34,282 nt of DNA, taken from the NCBI GenBank assembly GCA_964447725.1, contig CAYUUB010000001.1, positions 1 to 34,282 on the forward strand, read 5' to 3'. Positions within the stretch are counted from its first letter, which is position 1. Each line of letters opens with the position of its first letter. This DNA is from an uncultured Oscillospiraceae bacterium (GTDB lineage: Bacteria > Bacillota > Clostridia > Christensenellales > CAG-138). A program made the translations under genes and the position numbers. Positions 1 to 17,541 of this stretch are shown piece by piece. The notes under the pieces are model-generated. The model saw only the letters and a list, made by a program, of their open reading frames with translations. It had not been told where the DNA came from and made no database searches.

Positions 1-1
1 G

Positions 2-2053
2 GAGCTGCTTGGCTGCAAGGACGCCAAGGTGCAATATTTCCTGATCAACGTGCTAAAGATCGACCCGGCTTATTACGCCCAGATTGCCGAAAGGCTGGCC
101 GAACCGGACGTGATCGAGCCGGTCCTGCCGCTGGAAATCTGCGAATGCAGGAACCTCACCTCGCTGCACCGGGAGCTCGTCGTACGGGACGACGTGCTGG
201 AATCGGTCGTAAAGGTGTTTTTCCGAAAGTCCAAAAGAAACGTCCTGCTGCATGGCGACCGCGGGACGGGCCTGACAAGCATGGCCGCTTTGCTTGCGAC
301 GGAACTGCGCGACGGACGATATGCCTCGCTGAGGCACATTCAGGTAATCTGGTTCGATCTTTCCGGCGTTGCGGAGGGAGATTATGAAGAAGCCGCGGAA
401 AAACTGATGCGCTTTTTTGACGAAGAACCGGAACGCATCTACGTCGTCGAAGGTTTTTATAAGTATTTCAAGGATCATTTTTCAGCCGTTGCCCGAAGGC
501 TGCTCAAAAATAGTTATCGATTGCTGCTGATTACGGACACCGAAGAATACAACAGCCTTTCCGCAATGGGCGAACAGCTCGGCGCCTGCATGGAACCGGT
601 CCTTTTGCCGGAGGCCGGGAAGGCGGACGTACAGAAGATGATCGACCTTGCGCTGCCGGAAATCGAGCGGGAGTACGGCGTGCGCCTTGCAAAGGGCGTC
701 TCCAAAACGGCGTACCGCATGGCGAACGACTATTTGCTCTCCAAGCGGTTCCCGAAAAAAGCGATTGAACTGATTGCGCAAACCGCCGCCGACGTGTCGG
801 CGGAGGCGGAAATGCACGGTAAAACGGACCCGGCGATGACGCAGGAACACCTTGCCGGCCGGCTGGCGGTGCTGACGGGGCTTCCGGCGGAAACGATCCT
901 CGGCACGGGCGCGGACAAGGACTATGCGTTCCTGCTCTCAAGACGGCTGGTCGGCCAGGACGCGGCGGTGAACAAGGTTGCAGGGCGGCTCGACCTCATT
1001 CAAAAGGGAATGGTGGACAAAAAAGCGCCCGCCGCGGTGTTTGTGTTTGCGGGGCTGTCCGGCACGGGCAAAACGGAGCTTGCAAAGCAGATCGCCCAGA
1101 TTTATTCGAATTCCAGAAAGCTGATCTCCTTTGAAATGGCCAACTTTGGCGAGGCGCACAGCGTTTCGCGCCTGATCGGCACGCCGCCGGGCTACGTCGG
1201 CTATGAGGAGGGCGGCAAGCTGATTAACGACCTCAACAACGACCCGTACTCCGTTGTGCTGCTCGACGAGATCGAAAAAGCGAATCCGGCCGTATGGGAC
1301 CCGTTCCTGAACCTGTTCGACGAAGGCACGATCACGGACATGCGCGGCGTGACCGCCTCCGGTAGCAAGGCGTTTTTCGTGCTGACGTCCAACATCGGCC
1401 AGTACGACATCGCAAAGATGCTTCGCGAGGGTCGTCCGCAGGAAGAAATCGAGGACGTGGTGAAAAACAAATTCGGTACGGAAAAGCACTATAAAACGGG
1501 GGAACCCTGCTTCCGGCCGGAGTTTATCGGGCGCATCATGCGCCGCGGCGGCATCGTGGTGTTTAACGCGCTTTCGCGCGAGGCGCTGGAAGGTATTGCG
1601 CGCTATATGTTTTCAAAGAAAGCAAAGGAATACGGCGAAGTGCACGAGGGAAAGCTGATCTGCGACGACGACGTGATCGAGATGCTCGCCGGACGCGTGT
1701 TTGAAGGCAACGAGCAGGCGATTCGGCGCGGTTCCGGCTATTACGGCGGCCGCGAGCTGGATATTCTGATGAACCAGTATGTCGACAACAAGATCGCGTC
1801 CCAGCTGCGGCAGCTTGCGGGCGTGCCGCTTGTGCGCATCGTGAAAAACGGCGAAGATACCTCGGTGGTTCCCGTCTACAACGACGCGGACGCGGCGTCG
1901 CTGCTGGCGGAAAAACACCGCGCGCTGGTGGACCGCGTCGCGCAGAGGTTCGACAAGGTGGCCATGCTTTCCTCGGACGCGTTTGCGGACCTGGGCGACG
2001 AAAGCCTCGCCAAGCTGAACGCGCTGCTTTCGGAAATCGACATGATGGTATAA
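2..2053 (+). CDS. Clp/Hsp100-family AAA+ ATPase with degenerate D1 and intact ClpB-D2-like (AAA_2) module; probably 5'-truncated by the window edge (alternative start GTG 29)
   Basis: The frame is open from nt 2 with no stop upstream of GTG 29, and the first residues (ELLGCKDAKVQYFLINVLKIDP) resemble the end of a Clp_N repeat. D1-like module: Walker A is GDRGTGLT (nt 254-277, Lys replaced by Leu) and there is no hhhhDE Walker B (IYVVEGF). D2: GLSGTGKT (nt 1052-1075), VVLLDEIEKA, VLTSN sensor-1 and FRPEFIGRI, all typical of ClpA/ClpB D2. There is no long coiled-coil M-domain between the modules. Confidence 0.8.
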   Translation, partial: ELLGCKDAKVQYFLINVLKIDPAYYAQIAERLAEPDVIEPVLPLEICECRNLTSLHRELVVRDDVLESVVKVFFRKSKRNVLLHGDRGTGLTSMAALLATELRDGRYASLRHIQVIWFDLSGVAEGDYEEAAEKLMRFFDEEPERIYVVEGFYKYFKDHFSAVARRLLKNSYRLLLITDTEEYNSLSAMGEQLGACMEPVLLPEAGKADVQKMIDLALPEIEREYGVRLAKGVSKTAYRMANDYLLSKRFPKKAIELIAQTAADVSAEAEMHGKTDPAMTQEHLAGRLAVLTGLPAETILGTGADKDYAFLLSRRLVGQDAAVNKVAGRLDLIQKGMVDKKAPAAVFVFAGLSGTGKTELAKQIAQIYSNSRKLISFEMANFGEAHSVSRLIGTPPGYVGYEEGGKLINDLNNDPYSVVLLDEIEKANPAVWDPFLNLFDEGTITDMRGVTASGSKAFFVLTSNIGQYDIAKMLREGRPQEEIEDVVKNKFGTEKHYKTGEPCFRPEFIGRIMRRGGIVVFNALSREALEGIARYMFSKKAKEYGEVHEGKLICDDDVIEMLAGRVFEGNEQAIRRGSGYYGGRELDILMNQYVDNKIASQLRQLAGVPLVRIVKNGEDTSVVPVYNDADAASLLAEKHRALVDRVAQRFDKVAMLSSDAFADLGDESLAKLNALLSEIDMMV

Positions 2054-2069
2054 AAAGGAGGATGCGGAC

Positions 2070-3278
2070 GTGTTGGTATCGGAACTTTCCGGCCAGACGA
2101 TCGGAGACGGCCAGTACCGGCTGCTGGTGCGGCTGGGCGGAGGAAACTTCGGCACGGTCTATCGCGCGGAAGAGCTGATGAACGGCGCCGTGGTGCGCGA
2201 GGTCGCCATTAAGATCTACAAACCGGAAGCAACGGCCCTGGGAAACGTGGACGGCATGCTGGAAGACTGTGCGTTGCCGGCGAAAATCCTCGCGTCAAGC
2301 GCGCCGCTGGCGCAGAAGCAGCATTTCGTGCCGATCTATTCGTTTGGCAAGCTGGATACGCCCGCCGGGCGATGCGCATTCGTCTCCATGGAACTGATAC
2401 GCGACGGCGAAACGCTTGAAGCGCTCACGAAGCGCTATCGCCGCTTAAAGCGCTTCCCGAGCGAAGCCGCAATCGTCGATTTGATGCGGCAGTTTTTCAC
2501 GGCGCTGTCGCTCGCGCACCGCGCAGGCGTCCTGCACAGGGACATCAAGGGCGCGAACGTCATGATCCAGAACGGCGTTGTGCGCGTGATGGATTTCGGC
2601 ATGGGCGCATATGCAAACCGGCCGGACACGGCGCTTTGCACCACGATGAGCATCTATGCGCCGGAAAATTTCGAGGGACGGTATACCGAAGCGTCGGATA
2701 TCTATCAGGCGGGGCTGATGTTTTACGAGTTGTATACGGGATATTCGCCTTTTGCGGACCGATTCGGCGGCGGCACCGACATGCTGCGCGAGCAAAAGAA
2801 GCGCGTCGACTTTCAGTTCCGCGGCGGGGCCTACTTTCAGGGCGCGGATCCGTCGCCGAGGCTCGATAAGGTTCTTGCCCGTTGCCTGCGCTACAGCGAC
2901 GAAGCGCGTTATACGAGCGCAAACGCCGTTCTCGAAGCGCTGGAAGGGGCGAAATCGACGGAAGCGCTGCGCCAGGCGCTCACCGACAACGAATTCGACG
3001 CCGTGCTCCGTTTATCGGAAGAAATACTGGCCGGCCCGCGCATAAGGGACGACCAGCGCATCGAGTGTCTGACGTCCCGCGCGAAGGCGTATGCCGGGAA
3101 GAATGAAAACGAAAATGCGCTCACGTCCTATATGGAGGCGCTCAGTCTGGTTGACAAAACGGGGATCTATTTTCACCAGCCGTCAAAATACAACGCGCTG
3201 ATCGACAGCATTTGTATTCTCTATCTTAAAACCGGCCAGACGGGAAGCGCGCGGCTGTTCGCAAAGAAAAAACGCTGA
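2070..3278 (+). CDS. Hanks-type Ser/Thr protein kinase, soluble, with C-terminal TPR-like helical region
   Basis: SD AAAGGAGGA precedes GTG 2070. Kinase motifs are GGGNFGTVY, VAIK, HRDIKGAN (nt 2535-2558), DFG and APE. The last ~110 aa are helical-repeat-like. No hydrophobic TM segment. Confidence 0.85.
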   Translation: MLVSELSGQTIGDGQYRLLVRLGGGNFGTVYRAEELMNGAVVREVAIKIYKPEATALGNVDGMLEDCALPAKILASSAPLAQKQHFVPIYSFGKLDTPAGRCAFVSMELIRDGETLEALTKRYRRLKRFPSEAAIVDLMRQFFTALSLAHRAGVLHRDIKGANVMIQNGVVRVMDFGMGAYANRPDTALCTTMSIYAPENFEGRYTEASDIYQAGLMFYELYTGYSPFADRFGGGTDMLREQKKRVDFQFRGGAYFQGADPSPRLDKVLARCLRYSDEARYTSANAVLEALEGAKSTEALRQALTDNEFDAVLRLSEEILAGPRIRDDQRIECLTSRAKAYAGKNENENALTSYMEALSLVDKTGIYFHQPSKYNALIDSICILYLKTGQTGSARLFAKKKR

Positions 3279-3339
3279 AAACAAAGGGAACATAACCAAC
3301 GCAAAATCGGACAAACAAGCAAAACAGGAGGGCTATCGC

Positions 3340-4119
3340 ATGCAGTTCAAACCATTACCGGAGAAAAGAGCAGTACCGGCGTTTGTAAAAAAAGTGCCGG
3401 CGCAGACCGTCGTTTTAGAATTGATGAAGACCGGCGCGGCCGAACGGAGCACGCTCCGGCAGGAAATTGAAGCCGAGCGGAAACGTGCCGACAGCCTGGC
3501 GACGGCGTTCGCGCTGCAGGTATACCGCAAACGCGGCAGCGACGATCCGTTCGTTCACATGCTGTCCGATTTGATGGCGGAATATAAGGTAGAGGCGGTC
3601 ACCTACGAAGGCGAACCGCTTACCCCGGAACTGGAGACGGCGGCGGACATCGTGGAATGGCTGCCGGCCGGGGACAACGATGCCGAATGCGTGGTCGAGG
3701 CGATTGAGCCGGAAATCCGTTTTCAGGGCCGCATCCTCCACCGGGCGAAGCTCTCCTGCAGGAAAGCGCCGGAACCCGAACCGGAAATCACGGCGGAGCC
3801 CGAGCAGGCGGTTGCCAGTGAAAGCGCGGCGGCCGAAGAAGCGGCGAAGGAGCCGACTGCCGAAGCCGCAAACGGGTCTTTGGAGCCGGCGGACGCCGCG
3901 GCAGAGGAGCGGCCCGTCGAACCTGCGGCCGCCGCCGGGCCGCAGACCGCGCCGGAGCGTGAGAAACCGGGCCGGAAGGCGCGGTTCATGGCGATCATCG
4001 GAAAACTGTTTTCCAAATGGAAAAAGCCGGGGAATCCGGAAGCGCAAGCAACGATGGAAGATACGGCTACCAAAGCCGACGATACGGACAACGAGAATGA
4101 AGGGAGCGACAGAACATGA
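3340..4119 (+). CDS. GrpE-like nucleotide-exchange-factor candidate (minimal beta-domain) with long Ala/Glu/Pro low-complexity tail
   Basis: SD AGGAGG precedes ATG 3340. The segment nt 3586-3768 (KVEAVTYEGEPLTPE...ECVVEAIEPEIRFQGRILHRAKLSCRK) follows the GrpE C-terminal pattern (gVE.i...G.pfDP..H.A....vv.v.qkGY.l.GrvlRpA.V.V.k). The tail (nt 3769-4119) is acidic/Pro-rich and contains a basic amphipathic stretch FMAIIGKLFSKWKK. The stop overlaps the Hsp70 start (ATGA at 4116-4119). The CDS itself is solid; the GrpE assignment is moderate. Confidence 0.6.
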   Translation: MQFKPLPEKRAVPAFVKKVPAQTVVLELMKTGAAERSTLRQEIEAERKRADSLATAFALQVYRKRGSDDPFVHMLSDLMAEYKVEAVTYEGEPLTPELETAADIVEWLPAGDNDAECVVEAIEPEIRFQGRILHRAKLSCRKAPEPEPEITAEPEQAVASESAAAEEAAKEPTAEAANGSLEPADAAAEERPVEPAAAAGPQTAPEREKPGRKARFMAIIGKLFSKWKKPGNPEAQATMEDTATKADDTDNENEGSDRT

Positions 4120-6665
4120 AGACCAGTAAATGTGTCGGGATCGACCTCGGCACGACGAACAGCGTCATCGCGATGATTGCCAACGACAACAAAACGATCG
4201 TATGCCGGACGGACAGAAGCGGACGAAAGACATTCCCGTCGGTTATCGTTTACGATGCGAAGTCGGATTCTGCGAAAGCGGGCCAGATTGCGTTTAACAG
4301 GCGCGGCACCACGCCGGAGCCGATCGTATCGATCAAGCGCCACATGGGGAACGCCAACTATCGCGCGACCTGCGGTGCGCTGAACTTGTCGCCCGTCGAA
4401 GTTTCCGCCGAGATCCTGCGCACCATGAAAGAGAACATGCAGGATTATCTCAATAAAATCCCGGAATATTCCGACTATGTGGTGGACCGGGCGGTCATCA
4501 CCATTCCGGCGTACTTTGCTTCGAACGCTCGCGAAGCGACGACGCAGGCGGGCGAAATGGCTGGCTTGAAGGTGGAATTTACGCTCCAGGAACCCACCGC
4601 ATCGGCATTATATTACTGTTTTAAAAACGGGATCGATAATGGGATCTTCATGGTCTACGACCTTGGCGGCGGAACGTTCGACGTCTCCATTGTCCGGATG
4701 AACGAGGGCGACGCATATGTGCTCGGCATTGCCGGGAACAACTACCTTGGCGGCGACAACTTCGACGACGCGCTGGCGCATCGTTTGCTTGAACTGCTGC
4801 AGGACCCGGAAGAGGGGTACGATCTGGACCTGGATATCAACCACGAAGAGGAAGACCGCCTGCGCTTTACACGGCTGAAGCTCGAGGCCGAGATTATCAA
4901 AAAAGCGCTGTCCAAGAAAGAGGAGCATTTCGAAGCCGCGGACGGCGTCATCAAGGATAAATGCGGCGCGTCGGTCAATCTTGCCGCAACCGTTACGCGC
5001 AAAGAGTTTGAGGAGATGATCCGGCCGCTGCTGGAAACTACGATAGAGGAATGCTATAAGGCGCTGAAAGAAGCCGAAGAGAAACACAGCGTTACGCTGG
5101 ATATGATCGACGGCGTGCTGCTGGTCGGCGGAAGCACGCACATACCGGCCGTTGCACGGATCATTGAAAAAACGTTTACCGATCCCGGCCTCCCGGTCCA
5201 TACGAAGCTGCCGAAGCCGCTGGTGGACGAACCCGATATGGCGGTCGGCTACGGTGCGGCGATCGCCGCCGCGTCCTGCGGAATCGTATCCGCGGGAGCG
5301 GAGGCCGTCGAGCATAAGGGCGTGAAGCTGCAGGTAACGGCGGAGTTCAAGCCGGGCCGCGGGTACGCCGGCATCAGCATTGTGGAGGGCAGGATTTCGG
5401 CGGTGTCCGGCAATCTGCCGGACGGCATTTACGCGAAGGTTCAGCGTGCCGCAGGCGGGTTTTCAAAGGAATACATGGTGAACGAGGACGGCAGCTTCGT
5501 TTTTGACGAGCTCATGTCCGTGGAGGAAAAGGAACCGTACGCGTGCGAGTTTTACGCGGGGAACACGCTGATTCTCAGCACAAGCTTCGATGCGGCGGTG
5601 CTTGCCGTCGGCGAAATGCCCGTCGTTTTGTCCCGCAACTACTATATTCAGACGCTCAACGAAAACACCGGCGCGCTTCAACTGGTGAAACTCATGGAGA
5701 AAGGGACGCAACTGCCGTGCTCGAAGGACTATGAGTTTGAAGTCAACAGCAAAAACCCGTATTATGCCGAACTGCGTTTTTTCGAAGAAACGGAGTTTCT
5801 CAAGCAGGTCAACATGACGTTCGACCCGCCGGTTCCGCAGGGCACGGTCATCCGGCTGTCGCTGGCTTGCGATATTTCGAGCCGTTTTACCGCGCGTGCG
5901 GAGGCCGCCGGCATTGTCGTGGACGTTACGTTCGAGCAGTCGCCGATCGAGCCGGTCGATCCGGACGAGCTGGACCAGCTCGTGCACGACGTAAGAGATC
6001 GCATTGCAATGATCCCGAAAGCGGGCGACCGTATCGTTGCGGAAACGATGCTGACGCGGATCGTGCGGGAAATCGAACAGGCCATCGACGAAGGCGACAT
6101 CTGCAAAGCAAACGAAAAAATGGTGGAGCTGCGGGGAATCGGCGGGTTTACCGCAAGCCATGCGCCGCTGGAACCGCCGAAACAGGAGTTTGACGCGTTG
6201 GTCGCGGAAGTAAAGAAGCTCAATGAAACGTCTGAAAACGGAAGCCCGAAATTCGAACCGGACATCGCAAGCGCGGCTTCCCTGGGATATCGCGCCTATG
6301 ACAATGAAGACCAGGCGGTTCTCTCAAAAGCGGTGGCCGATTTGAATGCAATCAAGAAGGAGATAGCGGGAGAAGACCCGCCGTCGCCCACTCCGCCGAT
6401 GTGGCTGATTTGCCAGGTCTTTGCAAAGAAGGCGCTGGAACTCATCCAAAAAGTCGATGAGGAATCGAAGATACCGTCTGAATTCAAGAAAAAACTGATG
6501 GCTTCGGCACCGGCCGACCGCAAGGCGCTGCGAGAGGTACAGGATGCAACGCGCTTCATGCTCAGCGACGAAGAATGCGCGCCGCATATGAACGTCCTGA
6601 GGCAGGTATACCCAAAGTGGGAAAAGGCGGCTAAAATGTCCGGCATTCCGACTATTAAAATGTAA
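4116..6665 (+). CDS. Divergent Hsp70/DnaK-family ATPase (849 aa) with insertion between NBD and SBD-beta and an extended helical C-terminus
   Basis: NBD motifs: GIDLGTTNSVIA, IKRHMG, LQEPTASALYY, DLGGGTFDVSIV, LGGDNFDDAL, LLVGGSTHIPAV, DEPDMAVGYGAAIAAA. SBD-beta-like segment nt 5616-5940: VVLSRNYYIQTL..LVKLMEKGTQLPCSK..ELRFFEE..FDPPVPQGTVIRLSLACD. A ~115-aa insert (nt 5274-5615) replaces the canonical VLLLDVTPLSLG linker. Confidence 0.9.
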   Translation: MKTSKCVGIDLGTTNSVIAMIANDNKTIVCRTDRSGRKTFPSVIVYDAKSDSAKAGQIAFNRRGTTPEPIVSIKRHMGNANYRATCGALNLSPVEVSAEILRTMKENMQDYLNKIPEYSDYVVDRAVITIPAYFASNAREATTQAGEMAGLKVEFTLQEPTASALYYCFKNGIDNGIFMVYDLGGGTFDVSIVRMNEGDAYVLGIAGNNYLGGDNFDDALAHRLLELLQDPEEGYDLDLDINHEEEDRLRFTRLKLEAEIIKKALSKKEEHFEAADGVIKDKCGASVNLAATVTRKEFEEMIRPLLETTIEECYKALKEAEEKHSVTLDMIDGVLLVGGSTHIPAVARIIEKTFTDPGLPVHTKLPKPLVDEPDMAVGYGAAIAAASCGIVSAGAEAVEHKGVKLQVTAEFKPGRGYAGISIVEGRISAVSGNLPDGIYAKVQRAAGGFSKEYMVNEDGSFVFDELMSVEEKEPYACEFYAGNTLILSTSFDAAVLAVGEMPVVLSRNYYIQTLNENTGALQLVKLMEKGTQLPCSKDYEFEVNSKNPYYAELRFFEETEFLKQVNMTFDPPVPQGTVIRLSLACDISSRFTARAEAAGIVVDVTFEQSPIEPVDPDELDQLVHDVRDRIAMIPKAGDRIVAETMLTRIVREIEQAIDEGDICKANEKMVELRGIGGFTASHAPLEPPKQEFDALVAEVKKLNETSENGSPKFEPDIASAASLGYRAYDNEDQAVLSKAVADLNAIKKEIAGEDPPSPTPPMWLICQVFAKKALELIQKVDEESKIPSEFKKKLMASAPADRKALREVQDATRFMLSDEECAPHMNVLRQVYPKWEKAAKMSGIPTIKM

Positions 6666-6688
6666 AGAGGAAGAGGGGGAAACGAATC

Positions 6689-7186
6689 ATGATCTGCCCA
6701 ATCTGCGCGGCATCTTTGAAACCCGATCAGCAAAAGTGCCCGAACTGCAAAAACGATCTGACGTATTTTCTGACGCTTGCCTACCAGCCGGACCTGCTGT
6801 TCAACGACGCGATCGGCCGCATGAAGCGGGAAGATTACGACGGCGCGAGCGACCTGCTCTGCCGCGCGAGCGCGATGCGGCCGGACGACGCGGAGATCAA
6901 GGCGCTTTGGGCGCAGGCGTGCTACGGCGCCGGAAATTTAAAAAAGGCGTTGAGCCTGATGCTCGATTTGATGGGGAGCGCGCCGACGGAAGCGCTGGGC
7001 GCACAGTGCGAACGGCTGATGAGCGAGTATGAACGAAGCGCGTCGTCTCCGGAAACCCTGATCCGCGATCTGCTGCTTACACAGAGCGACCGGATGGAAA
7101 ATTTGATCGGGCGTCTCGAGCGTTTGGCGGAGCCCGGATCGGATCAAGCGCCTCCGGAAAAGGGGGATAACGATGAACCTGTATGA
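6689..7186 (+). CDS. Zn-ribbon (CPxC...CPxC) plus TPR-like small protein
   Basis: SD GAGGAAGAGGGGG precedes ATG 6689. The N-terminal MICPICAASLKPDQQKCPNCKN is a four-Cys zinc ribbon. It is followed by helical TPR-like repeats (DYDGASDLLCRASAMRPDDAEIKALWAQACYGAGNLKKALSL). Confidence 0.7.
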   Translation: MICPICAASLKPDQQKCPNCKNDLTYFLTLAYQPDLLFNDAIGRMKREDYDGASDLLCRASAMRPDDAEIKALWAQACYGAGNLKKALSLMLDLMGSAPTEALGAQCERLMSEYERSASSPETLIRDLLLTQSDRMENLIGRLERLAEPGSDQAPPEKGDNDEPV

Positions 7187-9998: not shown

Positions 9999-10001
9999 AC
10001 G

Positions 10002-13000
10002 ATGGAACCTTTCGCACGAGAAACCGCGCTTTTAGGCGTATATCGGGTTCTGGACGGGCCGATCAGCGGCGCGATGGGCCGTGTGTTTCGCGTGCGGCAT
10101 CTTGAATGGGACGTCGACCTTGCGATGAAACAGCCGAACGAGCGGGCGCTTGCGATAGCGGCTTACAGAAGCTGCTTTACGCACGAATGCGAGGCTTGGA
10201 TCGATCTGGGCCTTCACGAGCACATCGTGTCGTGCTACTACGTGCGCGAAATCGACGGCGTGCCGTCGATTTTCGCGGAATGGATGGACGGCGGCAGCTT
10301 ACGTTCGAAGATAGCGGACGGTTTTTTCCGGCAGGACGATGAAGGCGCGGCGCTTTCGCGTATCCTCGACGTGGCGATCCAAACGTCCCGCGGGCTTGGC
10401 TATGCGCACGAATGCGGATTGATCCACCAGGACGTAAAGCCGGACAACATCCTGCTTTCGTCGGACGGGACCGTTAAAGTGACGGATTTTGGCATCTCCG
10501 GCATCTGCTGCCAGACGGAGGGCGGCGCCGCGGCCGCAGGAACGGCAGGCGGGCCGAACGCCCTGCGCTGCCAAAGCGCGCCGGGAACGCCCGCGTACTG
10601 TTCGCCGGAGCAGAAACGCGGCGGGACGGCCACGATTTGGACGGACCTCTGGAGCTTTGCCGTCATGCTGCTGGAGATGCTCCTAAACGACCGCCCGTGG
10701 CGGGACGGAGAGGTTGCGGGGCTCTGCTGCGAAAAGTATCTGGCAAAAATCGGTGATTTTGCACCGGAAAAATTGAAAACGCTTCTGCGGAGATGCTTTT
10801 CGCAAGAAGAAGCACGGCGGCCGCAGGGATTCGGGGAAGTCGAACGCATACTTTGCAACGTCTATTTCGAGCGGACCGGGCGCGCGTATCCGCGCGCGCT
10901 TCCCGACAACCCCGCGGCGAGCGCGGGCGCGCTCAATAATCGGGCGCTGAGCTTTCTCGACCTCGACAAACCCGAACAGGCGGAGGCGCTCTGGAAGTCC
11001 GCATTGCAGGCGTACCCGGGGCACATGCCCTCCGTATTCAATCAAACCGTATATCATTGGCGCTTGGCGAAAATCGACGATCTGGAAGCGATGCGCAGCA
11101 TTCAGAATTGTTTCAATGGCGATCCGTGCGCCGAAACCGCGGAACTGTTCGCGCGGTTTTTGAGCGAGCGGGAGACGACGCGGCCGGTCCGGCAGCTGGC
11201 GGACCGCTTCGGGAGCTCGGTTGCTTCCCGCGGCGCGCTCGCCCGGGAGACGAGCGAAGACGCCTGCGTACGCCTCTGCGCAAAAAGCGCGCGCGCAATC
11301 GCCGCCGGCGAGGACAGGTTGTGCGCGATTGCGTTTGAGGACCGTTCGCTCGAAATCTGGAATACGGAAACGCGCATGTGCACGGCGACTTTGGAACGGC
11401 ACGGCGAAAAGATAAACGCGCTCGATTTCGATTCGCGTGCGGGGATTGTTGCCGCCGCGTGCGAGGACCGTTCTTTACGGCTTTATGGGACGAACGGAAC
11501 GATGATCCGACGGCTTTCGTTTACCGAAGGCGCCGTAAAACGCGTTCGTTTGTTCAGCGGGACGAACAGCGCGCTTCTGCTGCTCTGTAGAACGGAAGAC
11601 GGGCGGGCCAAACGCTATGTCATGCGCGTCGATCTGGAAAGCGGCGCGTGGCGGAACAAAATAAAAGCCCCGCAGTTCGGCCATGCCGGATTTTGCGCGC
11701 TGGGAGACGGGCGGCGTTTCGTTACGGACACGGGAGGCAGGCTTTTCCTTTGGGATATTGAGACGGCCGAATGTTTACGCACATTTTCGCTCCAAACGGG
11801 CGGCGTGTCCTGCGCCGCGGCCGACGCGGCGCAGGAACGGCTGCTCGTCGGAACGGACGAAGGGGACGCACGGGTGTTTTCGATAAAGGACGGAAGCTGC
11901 GTGCTGCGGCTTAACGGGCACACGGGCGCCGTCACCGCGGCTGCGTTTCACCCGGACGGCAAACAGGCGATGACCGCGGGACAGGACGAGACCGTTCGCG
12001 TCTGGGATTTGTCGACGGGGCGCTGCCTGCGCTCGTTCACCGCGCATCGGTCGCCCGTAAACTGCGCGTGTTATTGCAGCGGCGGGCGGGCCATCCTGTC
12101 CTCGGGATGGGACAACGCCGTTTTGATGCAGTTTGTACCGGTGTTTTCCTATCGCGCCGACTGGCAGCTTTGCCGGATCGTCCCGCTGGCGGGCCAGCGG
12201 GCTCTGCGCGATACGTTCGACCGCTTTCTGGACGATGCCGCGCGCGCGGCCGAGGCGGGCGAGACGGCCCGCGCCCTTTCGCTTCTCTATGCGGCGGGCG
12301 ACCTCCAGGGATTCGCGCAGGACCCGGCATATCTGGAGAGAAACGCGGCGCTCGGCGCCCGGCTTCCGATCGGCGGCGTAAGGTTCGCCTGGACGAGGCG
12401 CGTATTAGCGAATGAAGGGCCGCTGCGGGCGGCGGCGTTCCTGTGCGGCGATACGCGCGTTCTTACCGCGTCGGGAGCCGGCTTGCTGCAGGTTTGGGAC
12501 ATGGAAAACGGAGCCTGCGTCCGCAAGGCGGGATTGCCCGGACCGGCGAAAAGCGTGGCGGTCGCCGAAGGCATGATTGCAATCGGAACCGCCGACGGCA
12601 CGGTGCGATTGCTGCGGCCGGACGACCTGTCGGAAATTTGCGTTTTCAGCGGCCATACCGGGCCGGTGAACGCCGTTTGCATCAGCCAAACCCGGACGGT
12701 ATTGACGGCGTCCTGGGACCACACGCTGCGTGTGTTCGAAGCAAATGGAGACTGCCGGTTCGCGTTGAACGGGCATACGTCCAGCGTTTCCGCCGCCGCG
12801 CTTTCGCCGGACGGCGCGCTTGCCCTTTCCGGCGGGTGGGACAATACCGTTCGCATCTGGGATGCGGAAACGGGGCGGTGCCTGCGCGCGCTGACGCATC
12901 ACAAAACCAGCGTGAGCGCTGTTGCGCTGTCGCCCGACGGTTTGATCGGCGCGTCGGGGGACTGGGACGGCGAAATCGTGTTATTCGACCTGAAAACCGG

Positions 13001-13271
13001 GCAAATGCGCGCCCGGCTAACAGGTGCTTCCGGTTCCGTTACCGGAATATGCTTCACGCGGGACGGCAGGTTTGTCGCTTCCTGTGGGACGGACGGGCTC
13101 GTTCGCTTCCGGCGCGTATCCGACGGCGCGGTGGAGACGGTGCTCGCGGGTCACACGGGCGCGGTCAACGCCCTTGACTTCACGCGGGACAGCCGATTTG
13201 CCGTAACCGCGGGAGAGGACGGCACCGTCCGGCTGATACAAGTCGATTACAGGTACGATGCCGACGACTGA
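10002..13271 (+). CDS. Hanks-type Ser/Thr kinase fused to TPR-like linker and a long WD40 array (probably two beta-propellers)
   Basis: ATG 10002 lies 3 nt after the upstream stop. Kinase motifs: LAMK, HQDVKPDNILL, DFG, TPAYCSPE. From ~nt 11320 there are repeated WD40 signatures, for example GHTGAVTAAAFHPDGKQAMTAGQDETVRVWD, GHTSSVSAAALSPDGALALSGGWDNTVRIWD, HHKTSVSAVALSPDGLIGASGDWDGEIVLFD and GHTGAVNALDFTRDSRFAVTAGEDGTVRL. Confidence 0.9.
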   Translation: MEPFARETALLGVYRVLDGPISGAMGRVFRVRHLEWDVDLAMKQPNERALAIAAYRSCFTHECEAWIDLGLHEHIVSCYYVREIDGVPSIFAEWMDGGSLRSKIADGFFRQDDEGAALSRILDVAIQTSRGLGYAHECGLIHQDVKPDNILLSSDGTVKVTDFGISGICCQTEGGAAAAGTAGGPNALRCQSAPGTPAYCSPEQKRGGTATIWTDLWSFAVMLLEMLLNDRPWRDGEVAGLCCEKYLAKIGDFAPEKLKTLLRRCFSQEEARRPQGFGEVERILCNVYFERTGRAYPRALPDNPAASAGALNNRALSFLDLDKPEQAEALWKSALQAYPGHMPSVFNQTVYHWRLAKIDDLEAMRSIQNCFNGDPCAETAELFARFLSERETTRPVRQLADRFGSSVASRGALARETSEDACVRLCAKSARAIAAGEDRLCAIAFEDRSLEIWNTETRMCTATLERHGEKINALDFDSRAGIVAAACEDRSLRLYGTNGTMIRRLSFTEGAVKRVRLFSGTNSALLLLCRTEDGRAKRYVMRVDLESGAWRNKIKAPQFGHAGFCALGDGRRFVTDTGGRLFLWDIETAECLRTFSLQTGGVSCAAADAAQERLLVGTDEGDARVFSIKDGSCVLRLNGHTGAVTAAAFHPDGKQAMTAGQDETVRVWDLSTGRCLRSFTAHRSPVNCACYCSGGRAILSSGWDNAVLMQFVPVFSYRADWQLCRIVPLAGQRALRDTFDRFLDDAARAAEAGETARALSLLYAAGDLQGFAQDPAYLERNAALGARLPIGGVRFAWTRRVLANEGPLRAAAFLCGDTRVLTASGAGLLQVWDMENGACVRKAGLPGPAKSVAVAEGMIAIGTADGTVRLLRPDDLSEICVFSGHTGPVNAVCISQTRTVLTASWDHTLRVFEANGDCRFALNGHTSSVSAAALSPDGALALSGGWDNTVRIWDAETGRCLRALTHHKTSVSAVALSPDGLIGASGDWDGEIVLFDLKTGQMRARLTGASGSVTGICFTRDGRFVASCGTDGLVRFRRVSDGAVETVLAGHTGAVNALDFTRDSRFAVTAGEDGTVRLIQVDYRYDADD

Positions 13272-13321
13272 GTTGAACCAAAGCGGCGGCAAGCCGGACG
13301 GCTTGCGGAAGGAGGAAAGCT

Positions 13322-16300
13322 GTGGAACTGAACCTTGCGATGCAGTTTGTGATGCTGCGGGCATATGAGGAAGCGAAAGCATTCAGCAAAGGAGAACTGG
13401 GCACGGAGCATCTTTTTTTGGGACTGCTGAAGCTTGCCGAATTGAAGTGCGCGGATTTTGCGCCGTCATACAAGAACCAAACGACGGTCGACGCAGATAT
13501 CCGGCAGGTTGCGGAGGAGCTGCAAAAAAGAGGCGTTCAAACTTCGGCGGGACGGCAGCAATTACGCCGGATATTGAGAAACGAACCTCTTTCGCCGTCG
13601 GCGCAGGAGCAGTTAAACCTGGTTTTGGGCAGCGCGATGTATCATGCCCAACAGGACGGACAGGCGGAAATCACGTCATACGGCGTGCTTGGCGCGATCC
13701 TGCGGCATCCCACGCCGATGCTGAAGAACCTGTTAAGCGGCGACGCGCAAAAGACCGAAGCGGAAGCCGGGCCGGAGGAGCAGGAAACGCCGCCGGAAGA
13801 ACCGGAAGAAACGGGGATCGCCTACCTGCCCAGGCTGAACGAGCGAATCCGCGAAATGCGGTACCGGCTGCTGGAGCGCGTGTACGGGCAGGACCACGCG
13901 GTCCACGCGCTGGCCGAAGGGATGTTTTCCGCGGAAGTACTCGCCGCCGCGGACGAAAACCGCAAACAGCCGCGCGCCGTGTTTGCGTTTGTCGGACCGC
14001 CGGGCGTTGGCAAAACCTATCTGGCGGAGCAGGCGGCCGACGCGCTGAAACTGCCGTTCAAGCGGTTTGATATGAGCGGCTATGCCGATCATCAGGCACA
14101 TATCAACCTCATCGGATTCGCGCCCAGCTATAAGGACGCAAAGCCGGGGCTGCTGACGGAGTTTGTGCGGAAGCACCCGCATTCGATCCTGCTGTTCGAC
14201 GAAATCGAAAAGGCGCACCTGAATACGATTCAGCTGTTCCTCCAGATTCTGGACGCCGGTCGTCTTCACGACGATTTTCTGGACGAGGACGTTCCGTTTA
14301 AAGACACTTTGATTATCTTTACCACCAATGCGGGCAGTTCGCTGTACGATAACCTGCACGGCGGCGCGGGCGTTTCGAGGCAGACCATCCTCAACACGCT
14401 GGAGACGGAGATGAATCCGCAGACGCACAAGCCGTATTTTCCGCCGGCGATCTGTTCGCGCCTGGCGACCGGCTGGCCGCTGCTGTTCAACCGGCTTTCC
14501 GCGCACGACCTCGAGCGGATATGCGAAAAGGAAGTGGCGCGCTTTAGCCAGATGTTTGAAAAGCAATATGGCATTCGCGTCGACACGGACCAGCTTTTAC
14601 CGGCGACGCTGCTGTTTGCGGAAGGTGGACTCGCCGACGCACGGACCGTGCGCGCGCAGACGGAATTGTTCTGCAAAAACGAGTTGTTCAAGCTCTGCGG
14701 GCTATGGGGCGAAAGCAGTTTTGAAAAAGCGCTGGAGAATCTGACGGCGATCCATTTCCAGGTGGAAACGAACGAGCTCGAAGACCGGGTGCGCGCGCTC
14801 TACGTTAACCCGGAGAAACCGGAGATACTATTGTTCGGGAACGCGGGTTTTGCCGAACGCTGCCGGGCGATGCTGCCGGATTGCATCATTTACGACACGC
14901 TGGACATGGCGCGGGCGTATTCGATTTTCGGCGAGCATGAGATCCAGTTCGTTTTGCTCGACCTTGCCAGAGAGGCGGAGAACGCGCCGGACGACGATCC
15001 GCTGGCGACGCGTCTTTCGCTGGACGACGTGCCGCAGGGGACCGTGGCGTCGTTCGAAAACGTACCGATCGCCGCGGCGTCCATCAGGGACGAATATGCG
15101 TTCCTGAAGAACGTGCGGGAGCGCATGCCGGACCTGCCGATTTATCTGCTGGAATCCAGCGGGTTCCGCATCGACAACGAGCTGATGGCGGCGTTCGTGC
15201 GCTCCGGCGCGCGTGGTAAGCTACTGAAACCGGAAGGCGATTTCGGCGTATTTGCTGAAGAACTGCTGCGTATCGCCGCCCAAGTGTATTTGCAAAGCGC
15301 CGCGCAGTCGCTGCACGCGGAGCGGAAAATACTGACCTTCGAAACGGCTCCGATTCTAAGTCCCGACAAGCATGTGGCGACGATCCGCCTGCGCGATCTT
15401 TCGCTGCGCCGCGAAATGTCCGCGGAAGACAGCGGCGGGGTGCTTGAAGAGACGGAGCGTCCCGACGTTCGTTTCTCGGACGTGATCGGCGCCGACGATG
15501 CAAAGGACGAGTTGGCGTTTTTCGTGCAGTATCTGCAATCGCCCAAGAAGTTTTTAGCGCAGGGGCTGCGTCCGCCCAAAGGTGTGCTCCTTTATGGACC
15601 TCCGGGCACCGGAAAGACGCTGCTGGCGCGCGCGATGGCAGGGGAGTCCAACGTGGCGTTCCTCTCGGTCGCCGCAAGCGCCTTTACGACGAAATATCAG
15701 GGGAGCGGGCCGGAGTCCGTACGCGAGCTGTTCCGGCGCGCCCGCCGCTATGCGCCGTCCATCGTGTTTATCGACGAGATCGACGCTGTCGGCCGGCTGC
15801 GCGGCGCAGGCAACACGGGGCACGGCGAGGAGATGGCGCTGACGGCGCTGCTGACGGAGATGGACGGCTTTTCCGTTGACCCGCGAAGGCCGGTTTTTGT
15901 GCTGGCGGCGACAAATTTCGGCGTGGACGGCGAGAATGGCTCTGCGGGCGTAATCGATCCTGCGCTTACGCGCCGGTTCGACCGCAAAATCCTCGTGGAC
16001 ATGCCGACGCGCGACAACCGGAAGGCATATCTGGAACGCATGCTGGGCAAGCGCAGGGACAGCGCGGTTACGCCGGGCCTGATCGACCGGCTTGCCGGGC
16101 GCACGACGGGGCTGAGCCTTGCCAGCCTGGAATCCGTTATCGAGCTTGCCGCGCGAACCGCCAGCAAGCAGAAAACGGCAATTACGGACGAGCTGCTGGA
16201 AGAAGCGCTTGAACTCAGCCGGCACGGCGAAAAGAAAGACTGGGGCGTCGATTATCTGGAACGCGTCGCGCGGCACGAAGCGGGGCATGCGTATCTTTGC

Positions 16301-16780
16301 TATCTTGCCGGCGAGACGCCGGCCTATCTGACCATCGTCGCGCGCGGCGGACACGGCGGGTACATGGAGCATTCGGACAAGGAACAGACGCCGATCCGAA
16401 CGCGGGACGAACTGCTGGGGAACATTCGCACCGCTCTCGGCGGGCGCGCGGCGGAGCTGGTCTATTACGGACAGGAGGGAGGGCTTTCCACCGGCGCCGC
16501 CGGCGACCTGGAGCATGCGGCGCGCGTTGCGTCCGCAATGCTGCTGCAATACGGCATGGAAGGCAGGCTTGGCCTCGCCGCGCTCAATCACGCGGAGGTT
16601 TTGAAAGGGCCGCTTTCCGAATCGATTGTGGAATATGTGTCGCAACTGCTGGAAGAAGAGCTGAAAAAAACAATCGGGACGGTTGAAGACGGCAGGGCAA
16701 AGATCGACCGTCTGGTGGAAGCGCTTCTCGATAAAAACAAGCTGACGCGCGAAGAGATCGAAGCGATTCTGAAAGCGTAG
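13322..16780 (+). CDS. Soluble chimeric AAA+ protease: Clp_N-like domain + ClpB-D2-like AAA + receiver-like domain + FtsH-like AAA + M41 Zn-metalloprotease
   Basis: SD GGAGG (13311-13315) precedes GTG 13322. Clp_N-like repeats: [25 protein letters not shown] and [16 protein letters not shown]_2 module: GPPGVGKT (13994-14017), [18 protein letters not shown]. Receiver-like segment: 14822-15232. FtsH-like AAA starts at 15467: [63 protein letters not shown]41 motifs: HEAGH (16274-16288) and [16 protein letters not shown]. No TM segment anywhere. Confidence 0.9.
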
Positions 16781-16892
16781 CGAACCGGACGGACGAGTTA
16801 AACGGAGGAACGTTTGCATTGTGCGGCGGATACGTATGCCGGACGCCCGGCACGCGTGATAGAATATACGTAAAGAACGGAGGGGATCGAAT

Positions 16893-17450
16893 ATGGCGTT
16901 TGAAATTGTTCGAAACGACATAACGAAGATGCATGTCGATGCGATCGTCAACGCCGCAAACTCCGGACTGCTTCGGGGCGGAGGCGTCTGCGGCGCAATT
17001 TTTTCCGCGGCGGGCGCGGAAGAATTGCAGCGGGCTTGCGACGCGATCGGCCGCTGCGAAACGGGAGAAGCCGTTATAACGGACGGCTTTCGCCTGCCCG
17101 CGCGGTATGTGATCCACACGGTCGGTCCGGTTTGGCGCGGCGGCATGCAAAACGAAGAAGCGTTGCTGCGTTCGTGCTACATAAAATCGCTGGAGCTCGC
17201 AAAATCGCGCGGCCTGCACTCGGTTGCATTCCCGCTGATTTCGTCCGGAATTTTCGGTTATCCGAAGGAAGAGGCCGTTTCGGTCGCGATTTCGGCGATC
17301 GAATCCTTCCTGCAAAAAAACGACATGGTCGTTTTCCTTGTCCTGTTTGACGAACAGACCTATCGCTTAAGCAAAAACTGCGTACATAAACGCCGTCGGC
17401 AGCTTTCAGAAACGGGCGGCTGCGAACTGGGAAGATCGATCAACCAATAA
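16893..17450 (+). CDS. Stand-alone macrodomain protein (MacroD/YmdB-like ADP-ribose / O-acetyl-ADP-ribose hydrolase)
   Basis: SD GGAGGGG precedes ATG 16893. Motifs: [48 protein letters not shown], typical of MacroD-type macrodomains. Confidence 0.88.
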
Positions 17451-17461
17451 GGTGCTTGCCG

Positions 17462-17497
17462 AGGTCCTGCTTTGCTGTCAAGGCAGGACCGTTGTTT
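17462..17497 (+). terminator. Rho-independent terminator after the macrodomain gene
   Basis: Stem GGTCCTGC (17462-17469) pairs with GCAGGACC (17482-17489) across a 12-nt loop, followed by GTTGTTTT. Confidence 0.7.
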
Positions 17498-17513
17498 TAC
17501 AAATATGCTTCGC

Positions 17514-17541
17514 CTTGACACTGGAAGCGACATGCGATAAT
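17514..17541 (+). promoter_or_regulatory. Sigma-A-type promoter candidate for the CdaR-family gene
   Basis: TTGACA (17514-17519), 16-nt spacer, TGcGATAAT (extended -10; hexamer 17536-17541), about 65 nt upstream of ATG 17606. Confidence 0.45.

Follow-up and report, generated by a model that had tools for sequence, protein, structure and literature searches.

The described systems closest to the locus analysed here include the bacterial Hsp70–Hsp100 bi-chaperone disaggregase (DnaK–GrpE–DnaJ with ClpB) and the GAP1-N2 GTPase-centred conflict systems with HSP70, GrpE, and DnaJ/TPR-FNIII; for the latter, chaperone 'thresholding' of effectors was proposed, and kinase plus PP2C constituted a separate theme (Kaur, Burroughs, Iyer & Aravind 2020; PMC7159879). 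Also among the closest are the threonine-phosphorylation pathway of type VI secretion (PpkA kinase, PP2C PppA, Fha1, and ClpV), the McsB–ClpC(P) phospho-arginine degron pathway of Bacillus, the membrane AAA+ Zn-metalloprotease FtsH, and Escherichia coli HscC with its membrane J-proteins DjlB/DjlC. The locus, a gene cluster with nine ORFs (O1 to O9; Table 1), comes from an uncultured gut/digester-type Clostridia bacterium and lies in an analysed stretch of 34,282 nt (the window). Presented in the earlier note as a system with no described counterpart, it kept that standing when checked against named chaperone and defence systems: PADLOC gave only generic domain matches, no defence-system model, and nothing for Hsp70, O3, O5, and O6, and the searchable literature held no system of matching composition.

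Compared to DnaK–GrpE–DnaJ plus ClpB, the cluster shared an Hsp70 whose ATPase motifs are intact and which has a substrate-binding domain plus lid, a GrpE-like gene immediately 5' of Hsp70 (the O3 stop overlapping the O4 start as ATGA), and a dedicated ClpB-like AAA+ protein with Clp_N, but it contained no J domain, had an inactive first AAA ring in O1 and embedded kinases, displayed a longer Hsp70 with extra beta subdomain and helical domain, an unconserved linker, and loss of the Arg167 equivalent, and scored far under the family cut-offs throughout. In Actinobacteria and Firmicutes, the GAP1-N2 systems likewise associate GrpE and TPR partners with an accessory Hsp70, but no GAP1 GTPase, FNIII, vWA, or MoxR gene was found in the window or related loci; the present cluster has Hsp100, three or four Hanks kinases, and an AAA+ metalloprotease instead. 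With type VI secretion it shared FHA, Hanks kinase, and PP2C together with a ClpV/ClpB-like AAA+ remodeller, but it had no T6SS structural genes, Gram-positive hosts, and Hsp70 plus protease. As in McsB–ClpC(P), a kinase was encoded with Clp_N-bearing AAA+ unfoldases, but the kinases were Hanks Ser/Thr kinases rather than McsB guanidino-kinases, a ClpP-docking loop was absent, and the protease (M41) was fused. O8 resembled FtsH in its FtsH-type AAA+ plus M41 domain with HEAGH, but it lacked the N-terminal TM anchor, carried extra Clp_N, ClpB-D2-type AAA+, and receiver-like domains, and had a separate 7–8-TM protein encoded beside it. Finally, the cluster and HscC plus DjlB/DjlC both couple a specialised Hsp70 paralogue to its own membrane-anchored partner, but the partner in the cluster (O6) had no J domain/HPD motif, and O4 was much longer than HscC.

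Table 1. Features of the cluster, with positions in the window
Feature	Position	Strand	Description
O1	2(29)-2053	+	C-terminal 683 aa of 981-aa ClpA/ClpB-like double-AAA+ protein
O2	2070-3278	+	Hanks-type Ser/Thr kinase, 402 aa
O3	3340-4119	+	Small partner protein, weak GrpE C-terminal-domain similarity
O4	4116-6665	+	849-aa Hsp70 paralogue
O5	6689-7186	+	165-aa Zn-ribbon + TPR adaptor-like protein
O6	7173-9998	+	941-aa membrane protein, predicted helical solenoid + 7–8-TM domain
O7	10002-13271	+	1089-aa Hanks kinase + two WD40 beta-propellers, PkwA-like architecture
O8	13322-16780	+	1152-aa soluble chimeric protease
O9	16893-17450	+	Macro-domain protein, O-acetyl-ADP-ribose deacetylase-like
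Intrinsic-terminator-like hairpin	17463-17490	+	12-bp stem, 7 G-C pairs, then GTTGTTTT

The ORF anatomy described in the earlier note was re-derived from the sequence: eight plus-strand ORFs O1 to O8 with spacings of exactly 16, 61, −4, 23, −14, 3, and 50 nt, GGAGG-like Shine-Dalgarno sites 6–10 nt 5' of each start, a terminator, and a window free of mobile-element and known defence genes. The hairpin was the sole strong terminator-like site, the best among candidates in 1–18000, and it ended the co-directional gene string. The picture at the cluster edges, that of a self-contained eight-gene operon in 2–17497, did not hold: (i) an unreported ninth ORF, the macro gene O9, preceded the terminator; (ii) a PP2C phosphatase, an FHA-kinase, and an HTH protein were encoded directly upstream in identical/orthologous contigs, and the supposed lack of a PP2C or FHA partner was an artefact of the window edge; and (iii) O1 itself was cut by this edge, its full-length form in an identical contig (L002) including an N-terminal Clp_N outside the window. 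With at least 11 genes, most of them inside the window, the cluster is best read as a composite accessory system rather than a housekeeping chaperone operon.

O1 matched Pfam AAA_2 (E 2.5e-41) and AAA_lid_9 and displayed a degenerate D1 (Walker A GDRGTGLT, Walker B absent) plus an intact D2 (GLSGTGKT/VVLLDEI); direct reading of O1 found no IGF/L ClpP-docking loop, and its NCBIfam matches to ClpV, ClpB, and ClpA were all far under their cut-offs, TssH/ClpV being the best. O2 (Pkinase, E 1.2e-28) harbored VAIK, HRDIKGAN, DFG, and APE motifs and an unassigned helical tail of ~100 aa, and its orthologues were co-linear in all core loci (41–86% identity); Pfam (E ≤ 0.01) did not recover the TPR formerly assigned to it. 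Catalytic motifs were intact in O2, O7, O4, O1-D2, and O8. O3 had a conserved N-terminal region of ~150 aa followed by a disordered acidic/Pro-rich tail, and its residues 73–150 matched NCBIfam GrpE PRK14151 (E 7.7e-5; 22 bits vs cut-off 231), with a PDB profile match to GrpE 4ani in the same region (E 0.66) and an hhalign alignment to E. coli GrpE (P 0.0018; O3 73–140 on GrpE 127–191). These weak but consistent similarities favour the 'GrpE-like' label given before, and O3 probably serves as a nucleotide-exchange factor of the GrpE type. In O4, Pfam HSP70 (E 1.3e-71) covered residues 7–386 only; this intact nucleotide-binding domain was accompanied by the extra beta subdomain, a divergent substrate-binding domain plus lid, and the extra C-terminal helical domain. 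The O4 C-terminal profile matched PDB Hsp70 substrate-binding domains (E 3e-8), and the AF2 model (pLDDT 89.4, pTM 0.81) matched full-length DnaK/BiP in Foldseek (E 6e-38); in the family alignment, the Arg167 equivalent was Phe and the interdomain linker was not conserved. O5, whose orthologues sit after Hsp70 in core loci, matched TPR_19 (E 4e-6) and Zn_ribbon_3 (E 3.6e-5), with CPIC...CPNC read directly in the sequence.

O6 was composed of a cytoplasmic, all-helical solenoid (residues ~1–640) fused to the 7–8-TM domain (window 9153–9995). It had no sequence matches in Pfam, NCBIfam, PADLOC, and PDB, and only 45 relatives were found among 1.84 billion representative proteins; as modelled by AF2 (pLDDT 93.7), with all PDB fold matches ≤ TM 0.19, the solenoid is a new all-helical fold. 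The domain order read earlier (AAA+, kinase, Hsp70, Zn-ribbon-TPR, TM protein, kinase-WD40, and AAA_2–AAA–M41) stood except for the 'J-like' character of O6, which had neither J domain nor HPD motif; since no J domain was detected anywhere in the cluster and the Hsp70 had lost the Arg167 equivalent and conserved linker, the proposed Hsp70/GrpE/J triad loses its J member. The O6 TM domain was homologous to that of Clp_N-TM proteins adjoining O8 elsewhere (E 4e-17 and E 3e-75; L021, L022, and L103). In O6, this TM domain of the O8 module is fused to a domain specific to the core, and the fusion links the Hsp70 core and the protease module. O6 was multi-TM in all five independent O8-containing core loci (3–8 predicted segments, L013 having only 3), and four of the six O8-less loci had 1–3 predicted segments only, without the shared TM domain; L014 and L019, with multi-TM O6 yet no O8 nearby, count against our preferred reading. 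One O6 orthologue contained a peptidoglycan-binding domain.

O7 matched Pkinase (E 2.2e-31) and WD40 (E 1.5e-70 across 8 stretches), and it was always paired with O8 in L008–L011, L013, L020, L021, L023, L031, L103, and L105. O8 displayed the order Clp_N, ClpB-D2-type AAA+, receiver-like domain, FtsH-type AAA+, and M41 Zn-metalloprotease (AAA_2, E 7e-34; AAA, E 2.5e-46; Peptidase_M41, E 1.7e-26), with both Walker A/B pairs and HEAGH intact, no predicted TM segment, and 346 bits vs the FtsH cut-off of 600. The 'REC-like' assignment of its mid-region found weak but consistent support, the top five PDB profile matches all being receiver domains (E 0.025–0.25). In the O8 Clp_N, the GTEH motif keeps its invariant Glu (E29), which would correspond to a phospho-arginine pocket residue of ClpC. 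The O8 family comprised at least 120 clusters across phyla (54–89% identity; nearly all, at least 99%, full-length), Bacillota and Bacteroidota members sharing 54–60% identity at ≥99% coverage; the M41 motif was invariant in 24 aligned members, which argues that degradation is central. The neighbours of O8 were often housekeeping genes, such as the one for ArgRS in L022 and those for aromatic amino-acid synthesis in L103; such placement and its unusual conservation are atypical for an immune effector. O9 (Macro, E 1.1e-43; NCBIfam PRK00431 up to E 2.8e-55, under curated cut-offs) had its own Shine-Dalgarno site and a possible TG-extended −10 box at 16857–16865; it was retained after O8 only in close relative L020 and was absent in L021, L022, L103, and L105. 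Its membership of the cluster is doubtful, and it would be a neighbour or a lineage-specific add-on.

The sequence comparison was also applied to related loci, and conservation of the neighbourhood in unrelated genomes, on which the earlier note had made its claim depend, was found. Wherever the flanks sufficed, O1 to O6 kept their order; this covered about 10 independent loci from Clostridia and Actinobacteria (Christensenellaceae, Oscillospiraceae, Ruminococcaceae, other Clostridia, Bifidobacteriaceae, and Propionicimonas; Hsp70 identity 39–86%), and a distant relative (32% identity) still paired Hsp70 with an O1-like AAA+ protein, making the Hsp70–Hsp100 pairing the deepest conserved association. 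The single eight-gene unit was instead resolved into a composite of this six-gene core and a kinase/protease module with a distribution of its own: only the closest clade had O7 plus O8 downstream of the core, the FHA-kinase/PP2C/kinase-WD40/O8 module occurred without any Hsp70 in L021, L023, and L031, and the core occurred without O8 in L003, L004, and L018. The O8 family recurred with FHA-kinase/PP2C/kinase-WD40, with the 7–8-TM domain, and with other long Hsp70s (L022 and L103). In related loci the executioner was swapped, e.g., for a TPR-CHAT protease that followed the Bifidobacteriaceae core in place of O7 plus O8. The core sat inside the outer module, between PP2C and kinase-WD40, with gaps of 3–61 nt or overlaps, and five loci kept this gene order, the lowest Hsp70 identity among them being 62%. 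The distribution was rare and patchy, 12 of 185,579 species genomes yielding a locus, and copies from Clostridia and from Actinobacteria were ~50% identical; O3, O6, and O7 shared 59–73% identity with the closest relative (L008/L020) vs 90–97% for flanking genes. The window flanks were syntenic in a relative, and no cluster copies were found on plasmid or viral contigs.

Judged from domains and gene order, the cluster may be a composite Hsp70/Hsp100 system, gated by phosphorylation and docked at the membrane, that feeds an AAA+ metalloprotease (probability about 0.5). It would have two layers: (i) the Hsp70 core, with a ClpB-like unfoldase whose first ATPase ring is dead (O1), a Hanks kinase (O2), a probable GrpE-type factor (O3), an 850-aa Hsp70 (O4), a Zn-ribbon-TPR adaptor (O5), and O6 tying the set to the membrane; and (ii) a signalling/execution module of FHA-kinase, PP2C, O7, and O8, which also occurs alone in other bacteria. 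A protein-level signal would be detected by WD40, TPR, and FHA sensors; Ser/Thr phosphorylation would license the machine and PP2C reset it; Hsp70 with O3 and O1 would extract or unfold the target in a J-domain-free cycle on the O6 scaffold; and O8, docked on the 7–8-TM domain of O6, would degrade it. The kinase-controlled unfold-and-degrade module at the membrane proposed earlier fits the anatomy once its self-contained nature and J partner are dropped, and it is strengthened by the upstream PP2C plus FHA-kinase and by the O6 fusion linking both modules.

Dedicated stress proteostasis or membrane-protein quality control with no conflict role, i.e., a phospho-regulated DnaK–ClpB plus FtsH counterpart clearing damaged envelope/cytosolic proteins in anaerobes, is possible but not favoured: the cross-phylum conservation of O8 beside housekeeping genes, the stable, syntenic chromosomal context, the lack of PADLOC system matches and of plasmid/viral contig copies, and the depth of the Hsp70–Hsp100 pairing speak for it, but such a role sits poorly with a very rare, patchy, and divergent distribution, a terminal module exchangeable even for a CHAT caspase-like protease, many repeat-type sensor domains with up to three or four kinases, and the much faster evolution of O3, O6, and O7 than of flanking genes. 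The host's housekeeping DnaK/GrpE operon in divergent form is scarcely credible; only the Hsp70 nucleotide-binding domain and the GrpE-then-Hsp70 order recall it, against 252 bits for O4 vs the DnaK cut-off of 648, the missing J domain and hrcA, the unconserved linker and Phe at Arg167, and a family in 12 of 185,579 species genomes vs dnaK in 98.9% of bacteria, as reported in PMC11019930.

Two further readings appear unlikely. Adjoining but independent systems (Hsp70 core, kinase/phosphatase/protease module, and macro gene, two or three in all) would account for the O8 module without core, the core without O8, and a macro gene not conserved with O8; they would leave unexplained the insertion of the core inside the outer module at such short spacings, the two-sided nature of O6, the independent association of other long Hsp70s with O8-like proteases, and the order kept in five loci. 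Similarly improbable is control of assembly/disassembly of an unseen membrane/envelope complex, with proteolysis secondary: FHA-kinase, PP2C, and ClpV/ClpB-like AAA+ follow the PpkA/PppA/Fha1/ClpV signalling logic of type VI secretion, TssH/ClpV tops the sub-threshold matches of O1, and O6 is polytopic, with the peptidoglycan-binding orthologue, but secretion/structural genes were absent from the window and every related locus, and the invariant M41 motif argues for degradation as a central activity.

The cluster is conserved and undescribed, and on the strength of its gene content its parts probably act jointly at the membrane to unfold and degrade targets in a switchable manner. Most likely the cluster serves to mount a triggered proteolytic response, of conflict or stress type.

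The gene cluster at the left of the window is a conserved accessory system and a real feature, bigger and more modular than the self-contained eight-gene unit described in the earlier note: it extended leftward, had a ninth gene, and was made up of separable modules. The eight same-strand ORFs (O1 to O8) and their gaps of 16, 61, -4, 23, -14, 3, and 50 nt matched exactly on re-reading, each of the O1 to O8 starts had a GGAGG-like Shine-Dalgarno site upstream, and the sole strong terminator-like hairpin lay within 17462-17497, where a terminator had been placed. The ORF overlooked was O9, a macro-domain gene (148 bits against Pfam Macro, cut-off 22) that was O-acetyl-ADP-ribose deacetylase-like, with its own Shine-Dalgarno site and a possible TG-extended -10 box ahead of it at 16857-16865 (TGATAGAAT). 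Its membership is doubtful, and it is probably a mere neighbour; the closest relative, L020, alone kept it after O8. Downstream, the flank was ordinary metabolism, as had been noted: a CdaR/PucR-type regulator, a GntP permease, and a glycerate kinase (these three syntenic in L020), plus a CBM26 starch-binding protein, ABC sugar-transporter parts, an alpha-amylase, and a LacI regulator.

O1 continued beyond the left window edge, and its full length of 981 aa with a Clp_N domain was read from L002, an identical metagenome contig. The 131 codons lying 5' of O1 in L002 encoded the C-terminus of a PP2C phosphatase, 58% identical to the PP2C_2-positive gene at the equivalent place in the related locus L010. 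In L008 to L010 (77-94% identical loci), PP2C was preceded by an FHA-kinase of 469 aa (459 aa in L010) and an HTH_3-type protein of 414 aa (394 aa in L010); in the core loci L004 and L014, a homologue of this HTH protein was found ahead of the core, plus a kinase-Sel1-LRR protein. The caveat that the cluster lacked a PP2C or FHA partner was therefore a window-edge artefact, both being encoded directly left of the window in identical or related contigs.

Coordinates of the cluster genes, their flanks, and recurring features in the window and in compared loci
Feature	Location	Strand	Remark
O1 ORF	window 2(29)-2053	+	off left window edge
O2 ORF	window 2070-3278	+	
O3 ORF	window 3340-4119	+	
O4 ORF	window 4116-6665	+	
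O5 ORF	window 6689-7186	+	
O6 ORF	window 7173-9998	+	
O7 ORF	window 10002-13271	+	
O8 ORF	window 13322-16780	+	
O9 macro-domain ORF	window 16893-17450	+	Pfam Macro E 1e-43; between O8 and terminator
Terminator-like hairpin	window 17463-17490		single strong one found
Carbohydrate-metabolism region	window 17606-31976		downstream
PP2C, FHA-domain Hanks kinase, HTH_3 protein	L002 1-396; L008 308-3038; L010 3021-3785		left of window
7-8-TM domain	window 9153-9995; L021 3275-4330; L022 808-1659; L103 8926-9801		recurs beside O8-like proteases
Two tandem long Hsp70s	L022 2670-7975; L103 1-3391		directly upstream of O8-like protease; Bacteroidota-type

Clostridia and Actinobacteria both had full-length Hsp70s of the O4 type (39-88% identity), and a scan of 185,579 species genomes with a 6-sequence alignment of the family-specific Hsp70 C-terminal region gave 12 loci. 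The neighbourhood was indeed conserved elsewhere, the order O1 to O6 (the core) being kept in every locus with enough flank. A relative at 32% identity had its Hsp70 paired with an O1-like AAA+ protein and small partner genes, and no kinase; the AAA+ gene but not the kinase being kept, the deepest association is therefore that of the Hsp70 with its own Hsp100. In the window, the six-gene core was placed between PP2C and the kinase-WD40 gene O7, i.e., within an outer module of FHA-kinase, PP2C, O7, and O8. Only the closest clade (L008 to L011, L013, and L105) had O7 and O8 after the core; elsewhere their position was occupied by a TPR-CHAT protease in Bifidobacteriaceae and by LRR proteins, or nothing recognisable, in the remaining core loci. 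O8 had three kinds of neighbourhood: (i) the O4-type core; (ii) FHA-kinase, PP2C, and one or two kinase-WD40 genes with no Hsp70 (L021, L023, and L031); and (iii) a different long-Hsp70 family, often paired (L022, 858 and 881 aa, about 70% identical mutually; L103, 847 and 660 aa). In these Bacteroidota Hsp70s, likeness to the O4 family was confined to the nucleotide-binding domain (NBD), at about 27-32% identity, the L022 and L103 pairs being about 27-28% identical to O4 itself, so the Hsp70-O8 association there looks independent. The cluster is composed of known domain families plus the O6 solenoid and 8-TM domain, which are both unassigned, and it is rated as a variation on known chaperone/AAA+-protease and NTPase-chaperone conflict themes. 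Beside individual core loci were seen an nSTAND NTPase with RtcB (L003 1-1711) and an opposite-strand JAB and ThiF cluster of ubiquitin-like conjugation (L004 15662-21060).

O4 was rejected as a canonical DnaK: it scored 252 bits against the curated model NF001413 (cut-off 648) with the match confined to residues 4-386 (Pfam Hsp70, residues 7-386 only), the post-NBD region of its family differed in sequence and length, the hydrophobic interdomain linker was not conserved in the family alignment, the position of Arg167 was Phe, and VEFTLQEPT stood where DnaK has VKRIINEPT. The reference features were those of E. coli DnaK, namely the linker DVLLLD, Arg167 for J-domain coupling, and the VKRIINEPT stretch. 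The AF2 model (pLDDT 89.4, pTM 0.81) matched full-length DnaK and BiP (Foldseek E 6e-38, 759 columns), and the C-terminal-half profile of the family matched Hsp70 substrate-binding domains (E 3e-8); the predicted structure has the Hsp70 fold of NBD, beta-sandwich substrate-binding domain, and helical lid, to which O4 adds about 200 further helical residues and an extra beta subdomain. ATPase motifs were invariant or nearly so (at least 90%) among 58 homologues. In a 2026 review, the Hsp70 paralogues of bacteria other than DnaK, HscA, and HscC appear as 'derivates' of unknown function (PMC13580251). CnuD-type Hsp70s of CoCoNuT systems are McrB/McrC-linked and have degenerate Walker motifs (PMC11090510); they were rejected as a match for O4, which has intact ATPase motifs and no McrBC genes around it, in an unrelated genomic context. 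Another locus, L007, carried a 984-aa Hsp70 and two unassigned partners of 285 and 609 aa (10001-18206) within an integrative element, with integrase, Mob_Pre, resolvase, SIR2_2, Thg1, and GIY-YIG genes as neighbours, and this set may represent an Hsp70 system of its own in a defence island.

O3 gave three weak matches that coincided on the GrpE C-terminal domain: NCBIfam GrpE models (22.4 bits, cut-off 231, E 7.7e-5; seen in 2 of 11 O3 orthologues), GrpE 4ani in a profile search of PDB (E 0.66), and E. coli GrpE by hhalign (P 0.0018). By these likenesses O3 is a probable nucleotide-exchange factor. O5 was a Zn-ribbon and TPR protein. The earlier reading of O6 as J-like fell away: no DnaJ Pfam match was found among the nine proteins of the window, those encoded upstream of it, and 11 orthologues of O6, the HPD motif was absent from the O6 family alignment, and hhalign aligned the O6 profile to the DnaJ J domain over 6 columns at a probability of 0.1%. 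O1 was ClpA/ClpB-like (AAA_2 E 2.5e-41; 222 bits against the ClpB model, cut-off 1232) and was rejected as a ClpB/Hsp104 disaggregase with two active rings, its D1 being degenerate (Walker A GDRGTGLT with Lys changed to Leu, Walker B missing); the D2 Walker motifs were intact, and only about 70 residues lay between AAA_lid_9 and D2, where a long Hsp70-binding coiled-coil M-domain would sit. O2 and O7 were Hanks kinases as proposed, with VAIK/HRD/DFG intact in both, and the WD40 part of O7 comprised two propellers.

O6 had no family match in Pfam, NCBIfam, PADLOC, or PDB sequence searches. Its residues 1-640 were modelled by AF2, drawing on library-representative relatives, as an all-helical solenoid (pLDDT 93.7) with no PDB counterpart found (TM at most 0.19). 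An exhaustive HMMER scan of 1.84 billion representative proteins gave 45 relatives; a word-indexed protein search with O6 residues 1-440 (window 7173-8492) gave zero matches, its own protein included, so the index evidently misses the O6 family. The multi-TM character claimed for O6 was upheld, with seven or eight TM helices after the solenoid. This 7-8-TM domain, matched by no Pfam model, opened with the conserved motif T-x-I-N-G-x-x-[FY]-R-G-G and was an internal duplication of two ~4-TM halves; outside O6 it was often joined to a Clp_N-like domain in place of the solenoid. Homologues encoded beside O8 in other loci were (i) an L022 protein of 807+ aa (E 4e-17), (ii) an L021 protein of 737 aa with a Clp_N-like N-terminus (E 2e-5), and (iii) an L103 Clp_N-like plus TM protein of 507 aa, 43% identical to a Tannerella protein. 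O6 thus joins, in one fusion protein, a solenoid specific to the core and the O8 module's membrane partner. O6 was multi-TM in all five independent core loci containing O8, and in 4 of 6 O8-less core loci it had one to three predicted TM segments, the 7-8-TM domain being missing. Partners of the distant long Hsp70s (481 aa in L006, 609 aa in L007) were rejected as O6 relatives, being not O6-like.

O8 was confirmed as an FtsH-M41 protein (AAA E 2.5e-46, Peptidase_M41 E 1.7e-26, HEAGH at residue 985) with the order Clp_N, ClpB-D2-type AAA+, middle domain, FtsH-type AAA+, and M41. A hydropathy scan revealed no TM-like segment and no N-terminal anchor, and the protein was soluble. The simplest inference from sequence is that the O6 TM domain would dock or regulate O8, which lacks the FtsH anchor, at the membrane. 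The N-terminus was Clp_N-like by faint matches for the window's O8 and the L105 protein. The middle domain had no Pfam match; the best five PDB matches of its profile were all receivers (E 0.025-0.25), and LVLLDL aligned to the receiver phospho-acceptor strand. In the Clp_N region of the O8 family (window 13322-13450, O8 residues 1-40), an invariant Glu was seen in GTEH-L-LGLL, a motif that is gone from the second repeat and presumably resembles the ClpC pocket for phospho-arginine. The family comprised at least 120 clusters at 54-89% identity, nearly all (at least 99%) full-length, from Bacillota, Bacteroidota, and Deferribacteraceae, with a mean column identity of 66%. A metagenome scan with the O8 alignment returned mostly generic ClpB, the usable loci being only L023 to L032.

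The earlier note knew of no described system of such composition, and none was found in PADLOC-DB 2.0 or in literature searches covering 8 million papers. PADLOC-DB 2.0 gave no signature-protein match, generic domain matches only (the kinases matching PD-T4-6/mad6 and the AAA domains DolB/PDC-M37B/IetA), and zero matches for O3, O4, O5, O6, and O9. Each of five known systems failed at least one tested defining feature: (i) DnaK-GrpE-DnaJ with ClpB is a near relative, but the present cluster has no J domain and scores far below curated cut-offs; (ii) GAP1-N2 GTPase systems carry HSP70, GrpE, and DnaJ/TPR partners (PMC7159879) and need the GTPase with an FNIII-DnaJ/TPR partner, whereas no GTPase or FNIII domain was found in the window proteins or the gene lists of L003 to L005 and L008 to L019; (iii) the T6SS PpkA/PppA/Fha1/ClpV pathway shares FHA, Hanks kinase, PP2C, and a ClpV-like ATPase, but T6SS structural genes were found in none of the loci compared; (iv) McsB-ClpC is a near relative, but McsB is absent here; and (v) FtsH shares with O8 the order AAA+ then M41 with HEXXH, but not the TM anchor.

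The order of the genes, their conservation and modularity, the intactness of the catalytic motifs, and the folds were supported directly. On the proposed mechanism, to which a probability of about one half is given, the WD40, TPR, and FHA sensors and the kinases with PP2C would gate the system, Hsp70, O3, and O1, with O6 as their scaffold and no J domain involved, would remodel or extract the target, and O8 would then degrade it.

What such a machine would serve, conflict or proteostasis, is a separate matter. A conflict-type role would fit a system that is rare and patchy, its clostridial and actinobacterial copies about 50% identical, and in which O3, O6, and O7 were 59%, 61%, and 73% identical to their L008/L020 orthologues versus 90-97% for flanking genes; the executioner module is exchangeable, with a CHAT protease among its versions, repeat-type sensor domains are many, and the JAB/ThiF cluster adjoins one core locus. 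However, O8 is highly conserved with housekeeping neighbours, the flanking genes in the window are ordinary metabolism and syntenic in a relative, no PADLOC system matched, and no copies were found in searches of plasmid and viral contigs. The purpose is therefore left split between conflict and proteostasis.

Rather unlikely is a bolder form of the conflict role, an unrecognised class of bacterial immunity or programmed death. In it a J-independent Hsp70/Hsp100 pair would sense and threshold foreign or aberrant proteins, WD40/TPR/FHA kinases with PP2C would be the trigger, and execution would fall to interchangeable proteases, either the soluble Clp_N-AAA-receiver-FtsH enzyme docked on the 8-TM partner dedicated to it or a caspase-like one of the CHAT type; such a class would resemble, in outline, the eukaryotic WD40/kinase/caspase death pathways.

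The Hsp70 O4 is accompanied by an Hsp100 of its own, a probable exchange factor, and a new-fold membrane scaffold, but by no J domain; it therefore lends itself, as a natural example, to testing J-independent Hsp70 cycling. The O8 family and its 8-TM partner are widespread in gut and digester anaerobes of Bacillota and Bacteroidota, where their sole annotation is 'AAA family ATPase'. In bacteria, a link from phospho-signalling to AAA+ proteolysis is known mainly for arginine phosphorylation (McsB-ClpC); in the present cluster, signalling by Hanks kinases, PP2C, and FHA is tied directly to an AAA+ apparatus for unfolding and proteolysis. If immune, it would add a chaperone-based sensing principle; if proteostatic, important anaerobes would have in it a new, regulated pathway of degradation.
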